Both the position numbers and the translations under genes were made by a program. Below are positions 10,328-63,092 of a DNA stretch of 64,000 bases, one piece after another. Where the stretch lies: assembly GCA_965215565.1 (NCBI GenBank), contig CBDCDZ010000004.1, positions 3,200,001 to 3,264,000 on the forward strand. The letters run 5' to 3'. How positions within the stretch are numbered: the stretch's first letter is position 1; each line of letters opens with the position of its first letter. Under the pieces are notes generated by a model, which searched no databases, was not told the origin of the DNA, and was given only the letters and a program-made list of their open reading frames with translations. The DNA comes from Trueperaceae bacterium. Its GTDB lineage: Bacteria > Deinococcota > Deinococci > Deinococcales > Trueperaceae.

Positions 10328-11331
10328 ACTTACGCCTGGAAGGTCTCTCGAAGAGGTACGGTGATATCCAGGCGGTTGACGGGGTCTCTTTAGAGCTTCG
10401 TCCGGGCGAGACGTTGGCGCTTTTAGGTCCGTCGGGGTGCGGCAAAAGTACGCTGCTCAGGCTCATTGCTGGCTTAGAAGAGGTGGACGCGGGGCGCATC
10501 TTCTTGGGCGGCGAAGAGGTCACAGAGCGTTCACCGCAAAAACGCGGCTTCGGGATGGTCTTTCAAGATTACGCGCTCTTTCCGCACCTCAACGTGGAGA
10601 ACAACATCGCGTACGGCTTGGTTGAGAAGGGTTGGCCTCAAGAGGAGAGGCGAGAACGTGTGGACAACCTCTTGCACCTCGTCGGCTTAGGCGGGCTGAA
10701 CCGCCGCCGTGTAGAGGCGCTTTCGGGCGGACAACAGCAGCGCGTGGCGCTTGCGCGGGCGTTGGCACCTAAGCCTTCACTCCTCCTGCTGGACGAACCG
10801 CTTTCCAACCTCGACTTGGCGCTGCGCGAAGACCTCAAGGGGCAGCTCAAAGACCTCTTGAGTAACTTAGAATTGAGCGCCATCTACGTCACCCACGATC
10901 AAGACGAGGCGTTTACCTTAGCGGAGCGCGTCGCGGTGATGAGAGCGGGACGAATCTTACAGCTTGACGACGCGAAAACGCTCTACGCGCAGCCTCGTAC
11001 GGCGTGGACCGCGCAGTTTTTGGGGCATACGAACGTCTACGAATCGCTCGTCCACGAAGGGCTGAGGACGCTAGCGAATACCTCCCAGCCCTACATCCTC
11101 ATCCGCAGTGATTTGGTCTGCCTGGGCTCCGGCGAGATGAGCGCAGACCTCCTCAGCTACGCGCAAGTCGGCGCACTCCACCGCCTCGAGCTAGAGCTGC
11201 ACCCCTTCGGCTTGCGCTTTTTTTGGACCGGGTTCTCGAGAGAAGTCCCGGACGGGCTCGAGGTTGGAGGAACGCTCCAGCTCCACATCCCCGAACACGC
11301 CGTCGTCGGCTTAGACGGAGACAAGCAGTGA
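10324..11331 (+). CDS. thiQ: ABC ATP-binding protein, probable thiamine transporter ATPase
   Basis: GPSGCGKS, FQDYALFPH, LSGGQQQR, DEP; coupled to thiN. Confidence 0.75.
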   Translation: MNLRLEGLSKRYGDIQAVDGVSLELRPGETLALLGPSGCGKSTLLRLIAGLEEVDAGRIFLGGEEVTERSPQKRGFGMVFQDYALFPHLNVENNIAYGLVEKGWPQEERRERVDNLLHLVGLGGLNRRRVEALSGGQQQRVALARALAPKPSLLLLDEPLSNLDLALREDLKGQLKDLLSNLELSAIYVTHDQDEAFTLAERVAVMRAGRILQLDDAKTLYAQPRTAWTAQFLGHTNVYESLVHEGLRTLANTSQPYILIRSDLVCLGSGEMSADLLSYAQVGALHRLELELHPFGLRFFWTGFSREVPDGLEVGGTLQLHIPEHAVVGLDGDKQ

Positions 11332-11993
11332 AAGCGGTTGTTTTAGCGGGCGGCGACATCACCGTGACGGACGCGCTCAGAGACCTCTGCCGAGGTGCTG
11401 AACTCGTCGTCGCGGCAGATTCGGGCTTGCGGCACGCGGCGGCTTTAGGTGTCTCGCCGGACGTCGTTGTAGGTGACTTCGATTCGGTCACGGAAGAGGT
11501 GTTGGCTCAGTACCCCGACCTGCCGAGGGTGGCGCACCCCCCCGAAAAAGACCTGCTCGACTTGGAGCTTGCGCTCAGTCACGCGCGGGAGAGAGGCGCA
11601 ACGCGCTACCTCATCGTGGGCGGGCTCGGCGACCGCTTCGACCAGTCGCTCTCGGCTGTGCTGATCGCGGCAAGGTGGAAGCGTGAGGGTTATAACGTGT
11701 CGCTCCAATCGGGAGACCGCGCCGTTTACCTCTTGGCGGGGGCGGACGAGGTGAGGCTCGAGCTTCCCCCTAAGCAACGCTTCAGCCTGCTCAGCTTGAG
11801 CGAACAGTCAACGGTGAGTCTGGAGAATGCGGCGTATCTGCTCGAGAGGTATCCCCTCCCTTTCGGCGTCGGGCGGGGCGTGTCAAATGAGGTGGCGGAG
11901 ACTCCTTTGAAAGTTGAACTGCATAACGGATTGGCGCTGCTCATAGTGGAGAAGTTGAAAGCAACGAGCAATCCAGTCGAGCTGGTTATGTAA
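11328..11993 (+). CDS. thiN: Thiamine pyrophosphokinase
   Basis: AADSG, VGDFDS, EKD..D.ELA, GDRFD, GVSN motifs; GTG start overlaps thiQ stop. Confidence 0.9.
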   Translation: MKAVVLAGGDITVTDALRDLCRGAELVVAADSGLRHAAALGVSPDVVVGDFDSVTEEVLAQYPDLPRVAHPPEKDLLDLELALSHARERGATRYLIVGGLGDRFDQSLSAVLIAARWKREGYNVSLQSGDRAVYLLAGADEVRLELPPKQRFSLLSLSEQSTVSLENAAYLLERYPLPFGVGRGVSNEVAETPLKVELHNGLALLIVEKLKATSNPVELVM

Positions 11994-12072
11994 TCTTGCG
12001 AAGCAAACGAACGGTGAGCAATGAGCCTAAAGGTTTTCACTCGTTGCTTATTGCTCGGTACTCATCGCTGCT
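11961..12072. repeat. GAGCAAY heptamer inverted array with micro-inserts
   Basis: gcaacgagcaat...gagcaatgag opposed to ctcgttgcttattgctc. Confidence 0.75.
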
Positions 12073-13056
12073 TTACCACCTCTGATGCACCTGCTCGTAA
12101 GCATGTCGCTCGTAGACCTCTCTCGAGCGCGCCATCACCGCATCTGAAAGCGGGGCTAGCTCGGACGCCCTTGCGTTATCCTCGACCTGTTCGGGCTTTT
12201 TCGCGCCGGGAATCGCGCAGCTTACGGCGTCGTGCATCAAAATCCAGCGGAGGGCGAACTGAGGCATGGTGGCGTTTTCGGGCGCGAGGTCTTGGAGAGC
12301 GTTCACCGCCTGGAGTCCCGTCTCGAAATCCAGCCCCGCGAAGGTCTCGCCTCTGTCAAACGCTGACCCGTCGCGGTTGAAGTTGCGGTGGTCATCCTCT
12401 TCGAAGTTCGTTTTTTCGCTCATCTTGCCTGTTAAAAGCCCGCTCGCAAGGGGGACGCGCACTAAAATCCCGACGTTTTTCTCCTGCGCTTCTCTAAAAA
12501 ACAGTTCAGCCGGGCGCTGCCGAAAGAGGTTGAAGATGATCTGCACGGTGGATAAGCCGGTGTACTCGAGTGCCTTCAAGCCCTCCTCCACCTTCTCCAC
12601 CGACACGCCGTAATGCTTAATTTTTCCCTCGCGCTTCATGTCCTCTAAAACTCCGAAGACCTCGGGTTGGTAGAAGACTTTTGTCGGCGGACAATGGAGC
12701 TGGACGACGTCTAAAGCGTCCGTATCCAGATTCTTCAAGCTCCTATCTACGAAAGCGTTCAAATTCTCGCGGTTATAGCCCTCGGCGGTGTGGGGGTCTA
12801 AGCGCCTGCCCGCTTTGGTGGGGATGTAGAGCGTCTCGTCGCGCTCACGCCTGAGCTTGGCGAGGAGCCGTTCGCTGCGCCCGTCGCCGTAGACATCCGC
12901 CGTGTCGAAGAGGTTGATGCCCTCGTCTACGGCTTTATGCAAAGCGCGCATAGAATCCTCGTCGCTCACCTTGCCCCAGGAGCCGCCTATCGCCCACGCG
13001 CCGAAACTCACCTCGGAGACCCTCCAGCCCGTCTTACCTAATGTCCGGTAATTCAC
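12073..13056 (-). CDS. Aldo/keto reductase
   Basis: DTADVYG.G.SE, QLH, IPGAK motifs; GTG 13056 follows GGAGG. Confidence 0.9.
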   Translation of the reverse strand: MNYRTLGKTGWRVSEVSFGAWAIGGSWGKVSDEDSMRALHKAVDEGINLFDTADVYGDGRSERLLAKLRRERDETLYIPTKAGRRLDPHTAEGYNRENLNAFVDRSLKNLDTDALDVVQLHCPPTKVFYQPEVFGVLEDMKREGKIKHYGVSVEKVEEGLKALEYTGLSTVQIIFNLFRQRPAELFFREAQEKNVGILVRVPLASGLLTGKMSEKTNFEEDDHRNFNRDGSAFDRGETFAGLDFETGLQAVNALQDLAPENATMPQFALRWILMHDAVSCAIPGAKKPEQVEDNARASELAPLSDAVMARSREVYERHAYEQVHQRW

Positions 13057-13386
13057 GTTGCCCTCCCTCACTTCTCTTTAACGCGCAGCTTACCGCGCCT
13101 TTGAGGGTCTCTTTTGTGAGACGGCCCTAAGTTACGGTGAGCCTCGAAGGCCGCTTTGCGAGATTTTTGACAGTGGTGAGTCACAAGAGAAGAGGGCGCG
13201 GCTATCTGACATAGCGAAGCGGCGAGGGTGGCGTACACTTGGGAATGTTACTATCCAGCGTTATGAAGCGATTTTTCTCGAGGGGTGGCGCGTTAAAAAC
13301 GTGAACAGTTTAGGCAATCTCACCGTGACCGGACAGGGTCTCTTTCCGTATCCCCCTGCGCCTCCTCTATTCATCAGGCGTCTCCG

Positions 13387-14358
13387 ATGACGTCCTCCGT
13401 CGTCATTCGCGGCACGGGCGCGTACGTTCCCGAGAAGCGCCTCACCAACGCCGACCTAGAGCGCATGGTGGACACCTCCGACGAGTGGATTACGACGCGC
13501 ACGGGCATCTCCGAGCGGCGCATCGCCGCGCCGGAGGAGGCCACTTCGGACATGGCGCAGCGCGCGGCGTGCGCCGCGCTGCAAGACGCGGGCATAAACG
13601 CCGCCGACATCGACCTCATCGTCGTCGGCACCTCTACGCCCGACCACCACTTCCCCTCGGTAGCGTGCAAGCTCCAAGCGAGCATCGGCTGCACCAAAGC
13701 GGCTGCCTTCGACGTGAACGCGGCGTGCGCGGGTTTCATCTCGGCCTTGCAGGTAGCCGAGCAGTTCATCCGGGCAGGCAGCGCCGAACACGTGTTGGTA
13801 GTCGGCGCGGACACCATGTCGCGCATTTTGGACTACACGGACCGCGCCACGAGCATCCTCTTCGGCGACGGTGCGGGTGCGTTCGTGCTCTCTAAGGGCG
13901 AGAGGGGCGAGGGCGGCATCCTCAGTTCGGCTACCTACGCCGACGGCACCTACTACGACAAGCTGTACGTCTGTGGCGGCGGCTGCACATCGGACGGGCA
14001 AGAGGCTAGAGCAAAGATCACTATGAACGGCAGGGCCATCTTTCAACTCGCGGTGCGGGCGATGGTGAGCGCCACCGAAGAGGTGCTCGCCAAGGCGGGC
14101 GTGTCCGTCGGCGAGGTGGACTGGATAGTGCCGCATCAGGCGAACCAGCGCATCACGGACGCGGTGGCGAAGGGGCTCTGTGTCTCTTTAGAAAAGGTCA
14201 TCAGCACCATCAAAGACTTTGGCAACAACTCCGCCGCCACCGTCCCTTTGGCGATGGACATTGCCATCAAAGACGGACGCATCCAGCGCGGCGACAAGGT
14301 TATTTTGACGGCGTTTGGTGGCGGGTTGTCGTGGGGGTCGGTGCTGCTCAGTTACTAA
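13387..14358 (+). CDS. fabh: 3-oxoacyl-ACP synthase III
   Basis: DTSDEWI..RTGI, AACAGF, FGDGAGA, PHQAN, GNNSAA (Cys-His-Asn triad). Confidence 0.93.
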   Translation: MTSSVVIRGTGAYVPEKRLTNADLERMVDTSDEWITTRTGISERRIAAPEEATSDMAQRAACAALQDAGINAADIDLIVVGTSTPDHHFPSVACKLQASIGCTKAAAFDVNAACAGFISALQVAEQFIRAGSAEHVLVVGADTMSRILDYTDRATSILFGDGAGAFVLSKGERGEGGILSSATYADGTYYDKLYVCGGGCTSDGQEARAKITMNGRAIFQLAVRAMVSATEEVLAKAGVSVGEVDWIVPHQANQRITDAVAKGLCVSLEKVISTIKDFGNNSAATVPLAMDIAIKDGRIQRGDKVILTAFGGGLSWGSVLLSY

Positions 14359-14423
14359 GAAGCCATGAGAAACGAGCAATCCAGTCGAGCTGGACGAACG
14401 GTGAGTGAAAGACTTTGGACTCA

Positions 14424-14540
14424 GGTAGTGGCTCTATCTGGAATAGTACGGGTGTCCAAGCAAGGGGTTTCAACCCCTTGCTACGCCACACGGAGACGGC
14501 AGAAGGAGCGCGCGGCAGCATTCGACTTAGAACCACTACC
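14424..14540. mobile_element. Second MITE-like element with 13 bp terminal inverted repeats
   Basis: ggtagtggctcta (14424) ... tagaaccactacc (14540), one mismatch; contains palindrome caaggggtttcaaccccttg. Confidence 0.55.
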
Positions 14541-14570
14541 GACTTCAGACTCATTGCTCATTGCTTCTTT

Positions 14571-14754
14571 TAGCAGGTATCATCTGGTCAGAAACACTAT
14601 CACTTTTTAGAACATCGTTTCCTTCGGAAAACTGCGTAAGCAGCACGCACATTCTGAGATGAAATCCCGCAACGGCAGGGCGGCCTGCCCGTAACGCTAG
14701 TCCTTACGGACAGAGATCTGCGCTCATCCGTCTCAGTGTGGTTTGGAACTGCTA
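14571..14754 (+). mobile_element. MITE-like family copy A
   Basis: tagcaggtatcatctgg...ggaactgcta; about 70 bp identical to copy B; TTT on both flanks. Confidence 0.85.
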
Positions 14755-14755
14755 T

Positions 14756-15079
14756 TTATAAAACTGCCTGCAACGTCCACAGCGCCACCATGCCCGCCAC
14801 AATGGTCCAGATAATGCTCTTGCTGTAAAACGCCACGACGCCCGCGAAAAGTCCCGCTAACAGCTTCTCGTTGGTGAGGGTGAGCACTAAGTCTCCCTCA
14901 CGGAAGACGAGCGCGGGCACGACGATAGCGGAGAGCACGGCTGCGGGTACGAAGCGGAGCGCCCGCTGAACGAGGGGCGGCATCGCCAAGCGCCCCGCTA
15001 GCGCGATGAACGACGCGCGGAGCGCGAAAGTGATGAGCCCCATCAGAAGAATCGTCAGCCAGAGCGTTGGGGTGCTCAT
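14756..15079 (-). CDS. azlD: AzlD-family transporter small subunit
   Basis: ITFALRASF, FVPAAVLSAIV; ATG 15079 overlaps azlC stop. Confidence 0.85.
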   Translation of the reverse strand: MSTPTLWLTILLMGLITFALRASFIALAGRLAMPPLVQRALRFVPAAVLSAIVVPALVFREGDLVLTLTNEKLLAGLFAGVVAFYSKSIIWTIVAGMVALWTLQAVL

Positions 15080-15783
15080 GGGCGCGCCTCTTCGGTCTCT
15101 GCCGCTTTCACCGTCTCGACTAGCACGCCGACTCCGATGCCGACGAGCGCCGCGACGATGAGCGCCAGGTTGAAGGGCAAAGGGTCCGCGACGACGACGG
15201 TGACGCCCGCTGCGAGTGCCGCCGCCGCCGAAGCGCGGTCTGTTACAGCAGGAATGATGAGCACCATAAAGATGAGGGGGATGGCGAACTCCAAAGACCA
15301 CCCCTCGGGCACCTGCGCGCCGACGAACACGCCGATGATCGTGGAGATCATCCAGACGGCCCAGATAGGCGCAGCGACGCCCAGGTAAAAGAGGTTTTTG
15401 TAGGGCATGTCGGGCTCATCGGTGAAGCGGTTGACGCCAAAGGCGTACGCCTGATCCGTCATGAGGTACGCCATCAAGCCCTTCCAGGGTGCCGAAAAGC
15501 GCTCGAGAAAGGGCGCAATTGAGGCGCTGTACATCACGAAGCGCAGGTTGATAAACAAGGTAGTCATCAAAATAACAAAGACGGGCGAGCCCGACGCGAT
15601 GAGTTGCAAGCCCGCGAGCTGCGACGCGCCCGCGAAAACGATGGCGGAGAGCATCACGGCGGGCAGCTCGCTCAGCCCGACGCTCACCGCGCTCACCCCC
15701 GCGACGAGCCCAAAGGGAACGACGCCCAACATGACGGGTAAGCCTGTCTGAACGCCGGAGAGAAAGGTAGCTCTGGGGGTCAC
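15076..15783 (-). CDS. azlC: AzlC-family branched-chain amino acid exporter
   Basis: FAGASQ, INLRF, TDQAYA motifs. Confidence 0.9.
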   Translation of the reverse strand: MTPRATFLSGVQTGLPVMLGVVPFGLVAGVSAVSVGLSELPAVMLSAIVFAGASQLAGLQLIASGSPVFVILMTTLFINLRFVMYSASIAPFLERFSAPWKGLMAYLMTDQAYAFGVNRFTDEPDMPYKNLFYLGVAAPIWAVWMISTIIGVFVGAQVPEGWSLEFAIPLIFMVLIIPAVTDRASAAAALAAGVTVVVADPLPFNLALIVAALVGIGVGVLVETVKAAETEEARP

Positions 15784-46982: not shown

Positions 46983-47180
46983 AGCAGTTCCATTTATCAT
47001 TGCTGCACTTCTCCGCAAATCTCAGCCTGTCAAGGTTAGCGGAACTTCATCCCTGAAAGTGCGTGCTAGGCGATGTTCTCTTTAGTAAGAGCGTTGCTTC
47101 GCTTACGAAGTTTCCCTCCGGGAATGGCTTCGCCCAAGCTGACCAGATGATTGAGCGAAGCTATACGAAGTAACCTGCTA
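46983..47180 (-). mobile_element. MITE-like family copy H with micro-inserts
   Basis: agcagttcc...aaagtgcgtgctag...ccagatgat[insert]acctgcta. Confidence 0.78.
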
Positions 47181-62395: not shown

Positions 62396-63028
62396 ATGAA
62401 ACTCGCGATTTTTGGTGCAACAGGGAAGACAGGCAAGCCGCTCGTCGAACAGGCGTTGGCGCAAGGTCACGAAGTGACGGCGCTCGTGCGCACGCCGTCC
62501 AAGCTCCCCATCCAGAGCAGTGACCTCACGCTCGTGCAGGGCGACGCGACGGACGCTATGGACGTGGACCGCATCGTTATTGGCGCGGACGCGGTGCTGA
62601 GCGCCCTCGGTCACGTCAAAGGCTCGCCCGACGACGTGCAGACCGTCGCGACGGAGCACATCATCAAGGCGATGAAGCGGCGCGGTGTGAAGCGCTTCGT
62701 CAGCTTGACGGGCGCGGGCGTCGAAGACCCGAACGACGAACCTAAGTTCGCCGACAAGGTCATCCGCTTCTTGCTCAAGACCTTTGCGGGCAAAGTCTTA
62801 GAAGACGCTAAGAACCACGCCGAGGTGCTGCGCCGAAATAGAGACATCGACTGGGTGATGGTGCGCGGACCAAGGCTCACGAACGGCGCGCATACGGGGG
62901 AATACCGCGTAGGTTATGTGGGAAAGAACTCGAGCACCCAAATCTCCCACGCCGACACCGCTGACTTTATGTTGAAACAAGTGACCGACGATACTTACAT
63001 TCATGAAGCGCCGGTGGTGAGTTACTAG
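62396..63028 (+). CDS. NAD(P)-dependent oxidoreductase (BVR-B-like SDR)
   Basis: IFGATGKTG, VR.PSKL, W.MVR.P.L, IS.ADTADF. Confidence 0.88.
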   Translation: MKLAIFGATGKTGKPLVEQALAQGHEVTALVRTPSKLPIQSSDLTLVQGDATDAMDVDRIVIGADAVLSALGHVKGSPDDVQTVATEHIIKAMKRRGVKRFVSLTGAGVEDPNDEPKFADKVIRFLLKTFAGKVLEDAKNHAEVLRRNRDIDWVMVRGPRLTNGAHTGEYRVGYVGKNSSTQISHADTADFMLKQVTDDTYIHEAPVVSY

Positions 63029-63029
63029 A

Positions 63030-63092
63030 AAGCAACGAGCAATGAGTCTAAAGTTTTTTACTCATTGCTCGTTGCTTGTTACTCATTGCTAC
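63030..63092. repeat. GAGCAAY heptamer inverted array
   Basis: agcaacgagcaatgagt...actcattgctcgttgct (17 bp perfect arms). Confidence 0.8.

Follow-up and report, generated by a model that had tools for sequence, protein, structure and literature searches.

To our knowledge, the Nostocaceae are the only lineage for which mobile DNA of about 20 bases is on record, and we know of nobody who can say by what means it moves. The small dispersed repeats SDR1-8 of Nostoc and Anabaena were reportedly described by Elhai et al. in 2008 (Genome Res 18:1484) as many-copy dispersed units of ~21-27 nt, some of them hairpins; their mobility is said to have been inferred from comparisons of filled with empty sites, and they are said to be nested in each other and in heptamer tandem repeats. 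We know of no transposase for them. Here we analyse a locus of comparable build in Trueperaceae bacterium. The window, by which we mean the whole stretch of 64,000 nt that was analysed (assembly GCA_965215565.1, contig CBDCDZ010000004.1, positions 3,200,001 to 3,264,000 of the forward strand; G000:C4:3200001-3264000 in our naming), holds at 11986-12006 a 21-nt block with a small hairpin, which lies inside a 22-nt unit, itself inside a heptamer-array repeat at the 3' end of thiN, the gene for thiamine diphosphokinase. Our analysis suggests that the block is probably a copy of a genus-restricted family, standing at the standard site (CTGG|ACGA, the bar marking the point of insertion) of the 22-nt unit, its carrier, which in turn stands in the heptamer repeat at the end of thiN, and that these layers arose by successive precise insertions and not by deletion.

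Other families of short repeats offer further points of comparison. IS200/IS605 insertion sequences move as single strands by 'peel and paste', with two subterminal hairpins, a length of at least ~100 nt and a target of 4-5 nt, while the BOX elements of pneumococcus and the bacterial interspersed mosaic elements (BIMEs) of E. coli are mosaic repeats of short modules in variable number and order. Passages in PMC3116915 and PMC3733652 describe repetitive extragenic palindromic (REP) and REPIN elements with RAYT transposases. According to passages of PMC3733652, stems measure 5-13 bp in GTAG-tagged and 8-9 bp in CGTC-tagged palindromes, and the CGTC repeats 'apparently lack a dedicated transposase'. 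The features of the small dispersed repeats given above are supported by citing passages in PMC3116915, PMC2884548 and PMC5861425, and a passage of the last of these reports SDR-like repeats in none of the HIP1-rich cyanobacteria outside the Nostocaceae. For Truepera and the Deinococcota, our literature searches turned up nothing of this kind.

Nested layers at the 3' end of thiN

The three layers are nested with exact junctions: the repeat contains the 22-nt unit, which we call M2 or the carrier (the hairpin CCAG-TCRAG-CTGG followed by ACGAACGGT), and M2 contains the 21-nt unit. Read directly, positions 11966-12018 are cgagcaatCCAGTCGAGCTGG|TTATGTAATCTTGCGAAGCAA|ACGAACGGTGAG, and positions 14374-14405, in a second heptamer-array repeat just past the stop codon of fabH (14356-14358), are the same letters minus the 21 nt, with flank identity over 20 + 12 nt between the filled and the empty site. 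In terms of the carrier, 11973-12015 reads CCAGTCGAGCTGG-TTATGTAATCTTGCGAAGCAA-ACGAACGGT: the left part of M2 with its hairpin CCAG-TCGAG-CTGG (11973-11985, plus strand; seen in the direct reading, the fold and the census described below), the 21-nt unit (11986-12006, plus strand) and the right part of M2 (12007-12015, plus strand; by direct reading). The empty M2 at 14381-14402 (plus strand) reads CCAGTCGAGCTGGACGAACGGT. Neither junction of the block leaves room for shifting (G|T at the left end, A|A... at the right end), and zero bases are duplicated or lost. A preliminary description of this DNA had reported here a 21-nt hairpin insert without target duplication, and this is borne out letter for letter at both sites.

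The 21-nt unit consists of the head TTATGTAATC and the hairpin TTGC-GAA-GCAA (11996-12006), and contains the TAA of thiN. It occurs once in the window at up to 3 mismatches, against 0 occurrences expected. The hairpin matches the predicted fold; since the fold energy of the single copy is weak (-1.5 kcal/mol, z -1.05), we take its reality from the covariation described below. Logan contigs of run X1, possibly the same sample as the assembly, confirm both junctions, record 3 running up to 11994 and record 5 from 11996, with 0 differences each. In runs X7 and X8, of the same species label, the site is uncovered, and no RNA run was listed as containing the locus.

The thiN gene (11328..11993, plus strand) matches TIGR01378 at 6.5e-43 over residues 4-206 of 221, as well as the Pfam TPK domains, and the records closest to its protein are from Trueperaceae metagenome-assembled genomes. 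Past residue ~206 its tail is repeat, the last ~15 codons and the stop being repeat-derived. The repeat itself, palindromic and resembling a miniature inverted-repeat transposable element (MITE), fills the interval between thiN and a convergent aldo/keto reductase gene (12073..13071, minus strand; Pfam PF00248, 4.9e-69); it extends approximately over 11953..12068, has no assigned strand, and has inverted arms at 11958-11972 and 12040-12074. The thiN stop is the TAA at 11991-11993, inside the 21-nt unit, and so the earlier statement that the insert supplies the stop codon is true as far as it goes. It carries no weight, because in the frame minus the 21 nt (gac gaa cgg TGA) a stop comes three codons later, at 12015-12017, and the unit alters only the final residues of the protein, to …NPVELVM* rather than …NPVELDER*.

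What is the history of this locus? The preliminary description had proposed comparing the 3' end of thiN among close relatives, and we did so in G001 and G002, congeners of the present genome (G000), and in G005, from another genus. The order ABC ATPase, thiN, aldo/keto reductase is conserved in all three. G002 and G005 lack the repeat, and only a few bases separate the end of thiN from the convergent reductase gene. In G001 the repeat starts at the same base as in G000 (with gagaagttgaaagcaacgag and the protein tail …EKLKATS in common), contains neither the 22-nt nor the 21-nt piece, and gives thiN a TGA of the heptamer array as its stop. Because the repeat is present in both G000 and G001 at an identical junction between gene and repeat, it appears to predate their split, and the comparison indicates that it replaced the thiN 3' end in their common ancestor; the inner 43 nt would be either specific to G000 or lost in G001. 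The 29-mer spanning the junction of thiN and repeat had 0 matches in an exact metagenome scan.

The heptamer arrays (GCAATGA; at 11953-12068 in the window, and genome-wide) have on their GAGCAAT strand a TGA in all three frames within 21 nt, and genes entering them on this strand would therefore terminate at once, while no frame of the other strand is closed.

The 22-nt carrier and the family of 21-nt units

We took a census of M2 across the whole of G000 with its 13-nt host arm at up to 1 mismatch, true copies being sorted by reading of the matches. Among 63 matches there are 49 true copies: 16 are empty, 21 hold one block of 20-24 nt at CTGG|ACGA, and 12 hold more, in the form of nested or added units. 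All 16 empty copies share one junction. The preliminary description had contrasted filled with empty sites and suggested scoring all copies of the host motif; scored in this way, with 33 filled and 16 empty of 49, the contrast is a genome-wide pattern. The same description had the host motif interrupting a heptamer array. This it does, and in more than one such array; in addition it is a 22-nt insertion itself, found in transposase frames and in other repeats.

On the evidence of sequence comparisons, M2 is a tiny insertion in its own right. It lies inside orfA of two 99.9%-identical IS3-like copies, where a 79%-identical paralogue has a clean 22-nt gap, and in an IS5-like transposase gene of G000, where a clean gap of 22 nt is likewise seen in the 72%-identical homologue of G002, which has an M2 of its own at another codon. 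Both orientations of M2 relative to the interrupted reading frames occur. In G001 and G002 unique DNA and two further families of repeats also contain the carrier, and in non-heptamer hosts of these genomes the same host site can be seen both empty and filled (L118 vs L126; L119 vs L110 vs L115). Twenty-one G001 and G002 loci are syntenic with G000; at 2 of them G000 has the carrier in the corresponding place, at 4 it has one at some other point of that repeat, and at 15 it has none. At L104, in G002, a clean 43-nt block of M2 plus a 21-nt unit is absent from the otherwise well-aligned G000 repeat. L120, also in G002, has one M2 per arm, and its G000 orthologue, a heptamer-array repeat at 63028..63092 of the window (no assigned strand; identified by synteny comparison), has none. 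L127 has an M2 in the left arm in G001, and in G000 a filled M2, reversed, at the mirror site of the right arm. The 22-nt blocks differ between orthologous repeats at L120, L127, L100 and L117. Upstream of 40 carriers lies GAGCAAT-strand DNA in 30/40 and ATTGCTC-strand DNA in 0/40, and the base 5' of the carrier is T in 38/40.

The IS3-like pair (G000:C4:35800-37150 and 413147-414494) has, besides M2 in orfA, a downstream unit of 24-26 nt beginning CCCTAAAGGATTTCCT… in both copies. Since both carry the same units, an already broken element must have been duplicated later, and it was presumably mobilised in trans. In the IS5-like gene of G000 (C4:772536, minus strand; L138) the transposase frame is broken by a 24-nt block, TAGCGGGTGCGACCACGCCTGACG, which is the sole copy in the genome.

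The carrier is not confined to this genus. An exact scan for the 22-mer CCAGTCRAGCTGGACGAACGGT found it on >124 metagenome contigs, and we fetched 80 metagenome loci (L152-L231) and 2 viral ones (L276, L277), both viral contigs containing the carrier. The 80 metagenome loci contain 82 copies in 48 unrelated sequence contexts, with a locus GC of 42-70%; of all 82 loci, metagenome and viral, a single one has further likeness to G000. T stands 5' of 75/82 of the metagenome copies, G stands 3' of 46 and C of 33, and the 22-mer is often preceded by AT or GT. Sometimes it is in tandem, or alternates with other units of the form 'hairpin+ACGAACGGT'. Several copies lie inside transposase frames, of the IS110 type (L170, L189, L225) and of the DDE type (the L156 cluster, L209). 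In Deinococcota the carrier, scored as a 21-mer, is present in 4 of 301 genomes sampled (G000, G001, G002 and G253), a count that depends in part on G253, an unpublished genome. Units with a TTAYGNARTYT head were seen nowhere in 69 kb of the fetched metagenome loci. As the empty carrier is widespread where the inner family is unseen, we take the empty form to be the basic one.

The blocks found at CTGG|ACGA in G000 are of at least 6 sequence types and of three lengths (20, 21 and 24 nt), and every one of them closes with a stem of 4 bp around a GNA loop. More generally the family has a head TTAYGNARTY followed by a hairpin of 4-6 bp, in units of 20-26 nt; the head of the thiN copy, TTATGTAATC, is a transition variant of TTACGCAGTC. 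We examined covariation in 23 distinct carrier-borne blocks from G000 and from 30 G001/G002 loci. The 4-bp stem is fully paired in 20 of the 23, although its second pair is CG in 14 and TA in 9, and its third is CG in 10, GC in 6, AT in 4, TG in 2 and GT in 1. Paired stem cells number 89/92, vs 71.2±2.7 in shuffles, and 0 of 2000 shuffles equal the observed value, which is slightly favoured by our allowing two registers in the count. As far as covariation can tell, this shows selection on hairpin pairing rather than on sequence.

Family members also stand at other sites, namely the GCTRG|AC site of an abundant large MITE, ACGA|ACGG inside M2, and the loops of other units; by a rough tally, AC follows roughly half of the hairpin units. 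The family pattern has 3 matches in the window against 0.09 expected. The preliminary description had likened the thiN block to a unit of the MITE, and indeed TTACGCAGTTTTCCGAAGGAA, a 21-nt unit that occupies the GCTRG|AC site in one copy of the large MITE (14619-14639, minus strand), shares its head and hairpin design. The unit TTACGAAGTTTCCCTCCGGGA (47103..47123, plus strand) stands at another site of a large-MITE copy. A loose and noisy census of the large-MITE site indicates that empty, single, tandem and nested states all exist. The pattern TTACGNAGTTTTN10AA has 57 matches in G000, 43 in G001 and 63 in G002, compared with 0-2 when 28 other relatives are scanned and 0-1 when the pattern is reversed as a control, and the family thus appears to be restricted to the genus.

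Can the units move on their own, as the preliminary description proposed when it held that units of roughly 21 nt move independently of the MITE? A 23-nt member, TTACGAAGTTTTGCCTCCGGCAA, stands alone in the G002 copy of the IS5-like gene, whereas the homologue in G000 lacks it, which shows that entry into DNA free of both MITE and M2 does occur for units of this design. For the family the proposal thus holds; the particular 21-mer at thiN is known only inside its 22-nt host at one junction. Intact copies of the exact 21-mer in G000 number 3 (the present one, C4:3771992, and C4:2616247 with one mismatch), and further copies are split by an additional M2.

Two further repeats were seen in the window. 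At 14421-14540, in the loop of the post-fabH heptamer-array repeat, lies a repeat of ~120 nt with ends GGTAGTGGCT…CCACTACC and a central hairpin GGGGTT-TCAA-CCCC; it has relatives elsewhere in the genome, one k-mer family comprising 67 copies. At 47150-47171 a copy of the large MITE has its conserved GACCAGATGATACCTGCTAT end split by some 21-22 extra bases (…tgagcgaagctatacgaagta…), a small insertion whose sequence is of another type.

Probable insertion, its alternatives and the search for a mover

How could such layers have come about? In the sequence of events that we propose, the heptamer-array repeat would have entered the 3' end of thiN before the G000/G001 split, and carrier and unit would have entered the thiN repeat after the split from G001, either as one 43-nt composite or in two steps. 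Independent mobility is supported for the unit family; this copy may have entered a resident empty M2 or come as the 43-nt composite, and arrival as a composite is suggested because host and unit are gained or lost as one 43-nt block at L104. Identical 43-nt composites occur at two other loci. Any mechanism has to account for precise insertion, no target duplication, a fixed orientation at an asymmetric target, a target as minimal as T|G/C in the case of M2, and points of insertion that lie at the base of other hairpins or within their loops. These features would fit the insertion of folded single-stranded DNA by a trans-acting enzyme, as in IS200/IS605 and REP/RAYT systems. We propose that a nuclease or transferase that recognises structure would act on the units in trans, taking them up as folded single strands; it is predicted to insert them where a neighbouring hairpin leaves DNA single-stranded, at its base or in its loop.

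Several observations weigh against this account. The polarity of change at the thiN copy rests on parsimony over three genomes, with no dated event. Public runs showed no polymorphism between filled and empty states at this site: contigs of runs X1 and X2 break inside the repeat, and no listed joint skips exactly 11986-12006; the joints that run from 11971/11972 to 12034/12039 have different letters, derived from other repeat copies. Predicted hairpin energies are not better than those of shuffles (z -0.4 to -1.5). A single-strand mechanism working on the lagging strand predicts a strand bias that follows replication, but the bias of the G000 carriers (~31 on the plus strand to ~12 on the minus strand, at all chromosome positions) is unrelated to the replichores drawn from the GC skew, which is weak, with a minimum near 3.14 Mb and a maximum near 0.28 Mb.

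Moreover, among the candidates searched, no enzyme that moves the units was identified. Y1 domains (PF01797) number 2 in G000 and 1 in G001, with none in G002 (assembly completeness 97%), the genome richest in copies, with 65 carrier arms and 63 head-pattern matches. A RAYT-like gene of G000 (C4:3590035-3590556, minus strand), whose 73 bits against NF047646 fall short of the cut-off of 80, is present in G001 at 78% identity and was not found in G002, and it is not flanked by units. Reverse transcriptases (PF00078, RVT_1) were found in neither G000 nor G002. As movers we reject the Y1, RAYT-like and reverse transcriptase genes, whose presence does not track the elements. The TnpB zinc-ribbon domain (PF07282) was seen only on the small G000 contig C1; a search for Y2 (PF04986) gave no matches, with a control that also matched nowhere. 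Two of these genes have settings of their own. The RAYT-like gene (L095 1462-1986) is a single copy between mutS and mutL, overlapping the end of mutS. At G000:C4:3784707-3788666 (minus strand; L096 3708-7667), a type IIG-like N6 methylase of 1319 aa holds, in frame between its methylase motifs, a complete IS200-like Y1 (HUH) domain (PF01797, 5.2e-14); the gene adjoins that of a 1053-aa PLD/SNF2 helicase, and no counterpart was found in G001 or G002.

A further point against our account is that copies of the exact 21-mer, intact or split, are all inside M2 and always at the same junction (blastn-short, G000). This is what one would expect if the 21-nt block were copied between carriers by short-homology recombination or template switching, or if it rode only within the 43-nt composite. 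Such conversion would also agree with the gain and loss of 43-nt composites as units at L104, and flanking homology would be available in the carrier arms and heptamers. The homology arms are merely 13 and 9 nt, however, and relatives of the same design stand at unrelated sites, in the large MITE, in hairpin loops and in a transposase frame free of the carrier, so that we regard conversion as unlikely. Much the same uniformity could be invoked for a deletion: were the 43-nt form ancestral, a 22-nt form such as that at 14381-14402 would have arisen by precise loss of the inner 21-24 nt, and a single founding deletion followed by spread would yield the one junction shared by all 16 empty copies. 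Yet slippage would have no direct repeat to work on at the junctions, the inner blocks vary, with at least 6 sequence types in three lengths at one junction, and the empty 22-mer is found in transposase frames, in unique DNA and on >124 unrelated metagenome contigs, the inner family being unseen in the fetched loci. We therefore judge deletion to be very improbable. The preliminary description had set its reading against the case in which the longer form was ancestral and the motif occurred in no other context; deletion is disfavoured, and the motif was found in other contexts.

It might also be argued that carrier and unit together form an element of the 3' untranslated region, such as a terminator, a stabiliser or a small RNA, that selection on the RNA maintains its variable hairpin, and that the apparent insertions are diverged alleles of a single RNA family. 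The position just past the stop codons of convergent genes and the covarying stems, some G-T pairs included, would suit such a role. However, the fold is no better than that of shuffles, a scan for terminators and promoters found nothing, and Rfam 15 gave for window positions 11000-15500 only an irrelevant match to sR5 (E 0.59, with E up to 1 admitted). The carrier's occurrence in either orientation in transposase frames argues against a role at the RNA level, and precise presence and absence in coding DNA would go unexplained. We give this explanation hardly any credence. Returning to successive insertions, one may go a good deal further and imagine the carrier as a cosmopolitan mobile 22-mer with no enzyme of its own, moved by a conserved host activity of replication or repair, crossing phyla inside the insertion-sequence genes that it disables, and serving in this genus as a landing pad for home-grown, self-nesting hairpin units of 21-26 nt, which would be the smallest mobile elements known. 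This larger picture is a speculation that we ourselves think doubtful.

Significance and relation to described systems

What is new here is the history of the thiN locus, the carrier as an insertion of its own with orthologous and paralogous empty sites, the lone unit in a transposase gene, and the wide but patchy spread of the carrier. Together these offer a second, unrelated lineage for tiny mobile DNA, with three genomes that can be compared and units gained and lost as exact blocks. The units enter coding DNA, breaking transposase frames of the IS3, IS5 and IS110 types, and they rewrite the ends of genes, as with thiN, where ~15 terminal codons and the stop are affected. For annotation this is a warning that stops and C-terminal tails beside such repeats may be recent and unstable. 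The distribution of the carrier also makes one ask by what route so short a sequence passes from one lineage to another. As it is patchy within the phylum yet identical in unrelated organisms, an association search for the enzyme responsible should be feasible.

How do these units relate to known systems? With IS200/IS605 they share the lack of target duplication, the fixed orientation at an asymmetric target, small hairpins and a specific short neighbouring sequence. They differ in being 20-26 nt long with one hairpin, in a target that is barely T|G/C (carrier) or |AC (units), and in that the Y1 (HUH) enzyme is not present wherever the elements are, none having been found in G002. As for classical MITEs, neither the 21-nt nor the 22-nt unit has terminal inverted repeats or a target-site duplication. 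Like BOX and BIME elements, the arrangement is composed of short modules, but in the present case one module sits within another at an exact internal point, and modules can also be found singly in unrelated DNA, coding sequence among it. The likeness to REP elements lies in a short unpaired tag next to a stem-loop with compensatory changes, found mostly downstream of genes, between convergent open reading frames, and occasionally in genes; in reverse complement, the carrier consists of ACCGTTCGTC and a hairpin, with CGTC at the foot of the stem. On the other hand, the stems here are of 4-6 bp, the head has 9-10 nt and is not a tetranucleotide, the position that would make GTAG is variable, the units nest, and the RAYT-like gene is unflanked and was not found in G002.

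The closest described system, as judged by likeness of description, would thus be the small dispersed repeats of Nostocaceae. Here too the units are short (20-26 nt) and present in many copies (49 carriers and 57 head-pattern matches in G000), filled and empty sites are precise in paralogous and orthologous DNA, and units nest in each other and in heptamer repeats. For the small dispersed repeats we know of no report of identity across organisms or of insertion in transposase genes. The carrier described here, by contrast, is letter-identical in many unrelated metagenome organisms and lies in transposase genes, and the host, in place of a member of the Nostocaceae, is one of the Trueperaceae, in the Deinococcota.

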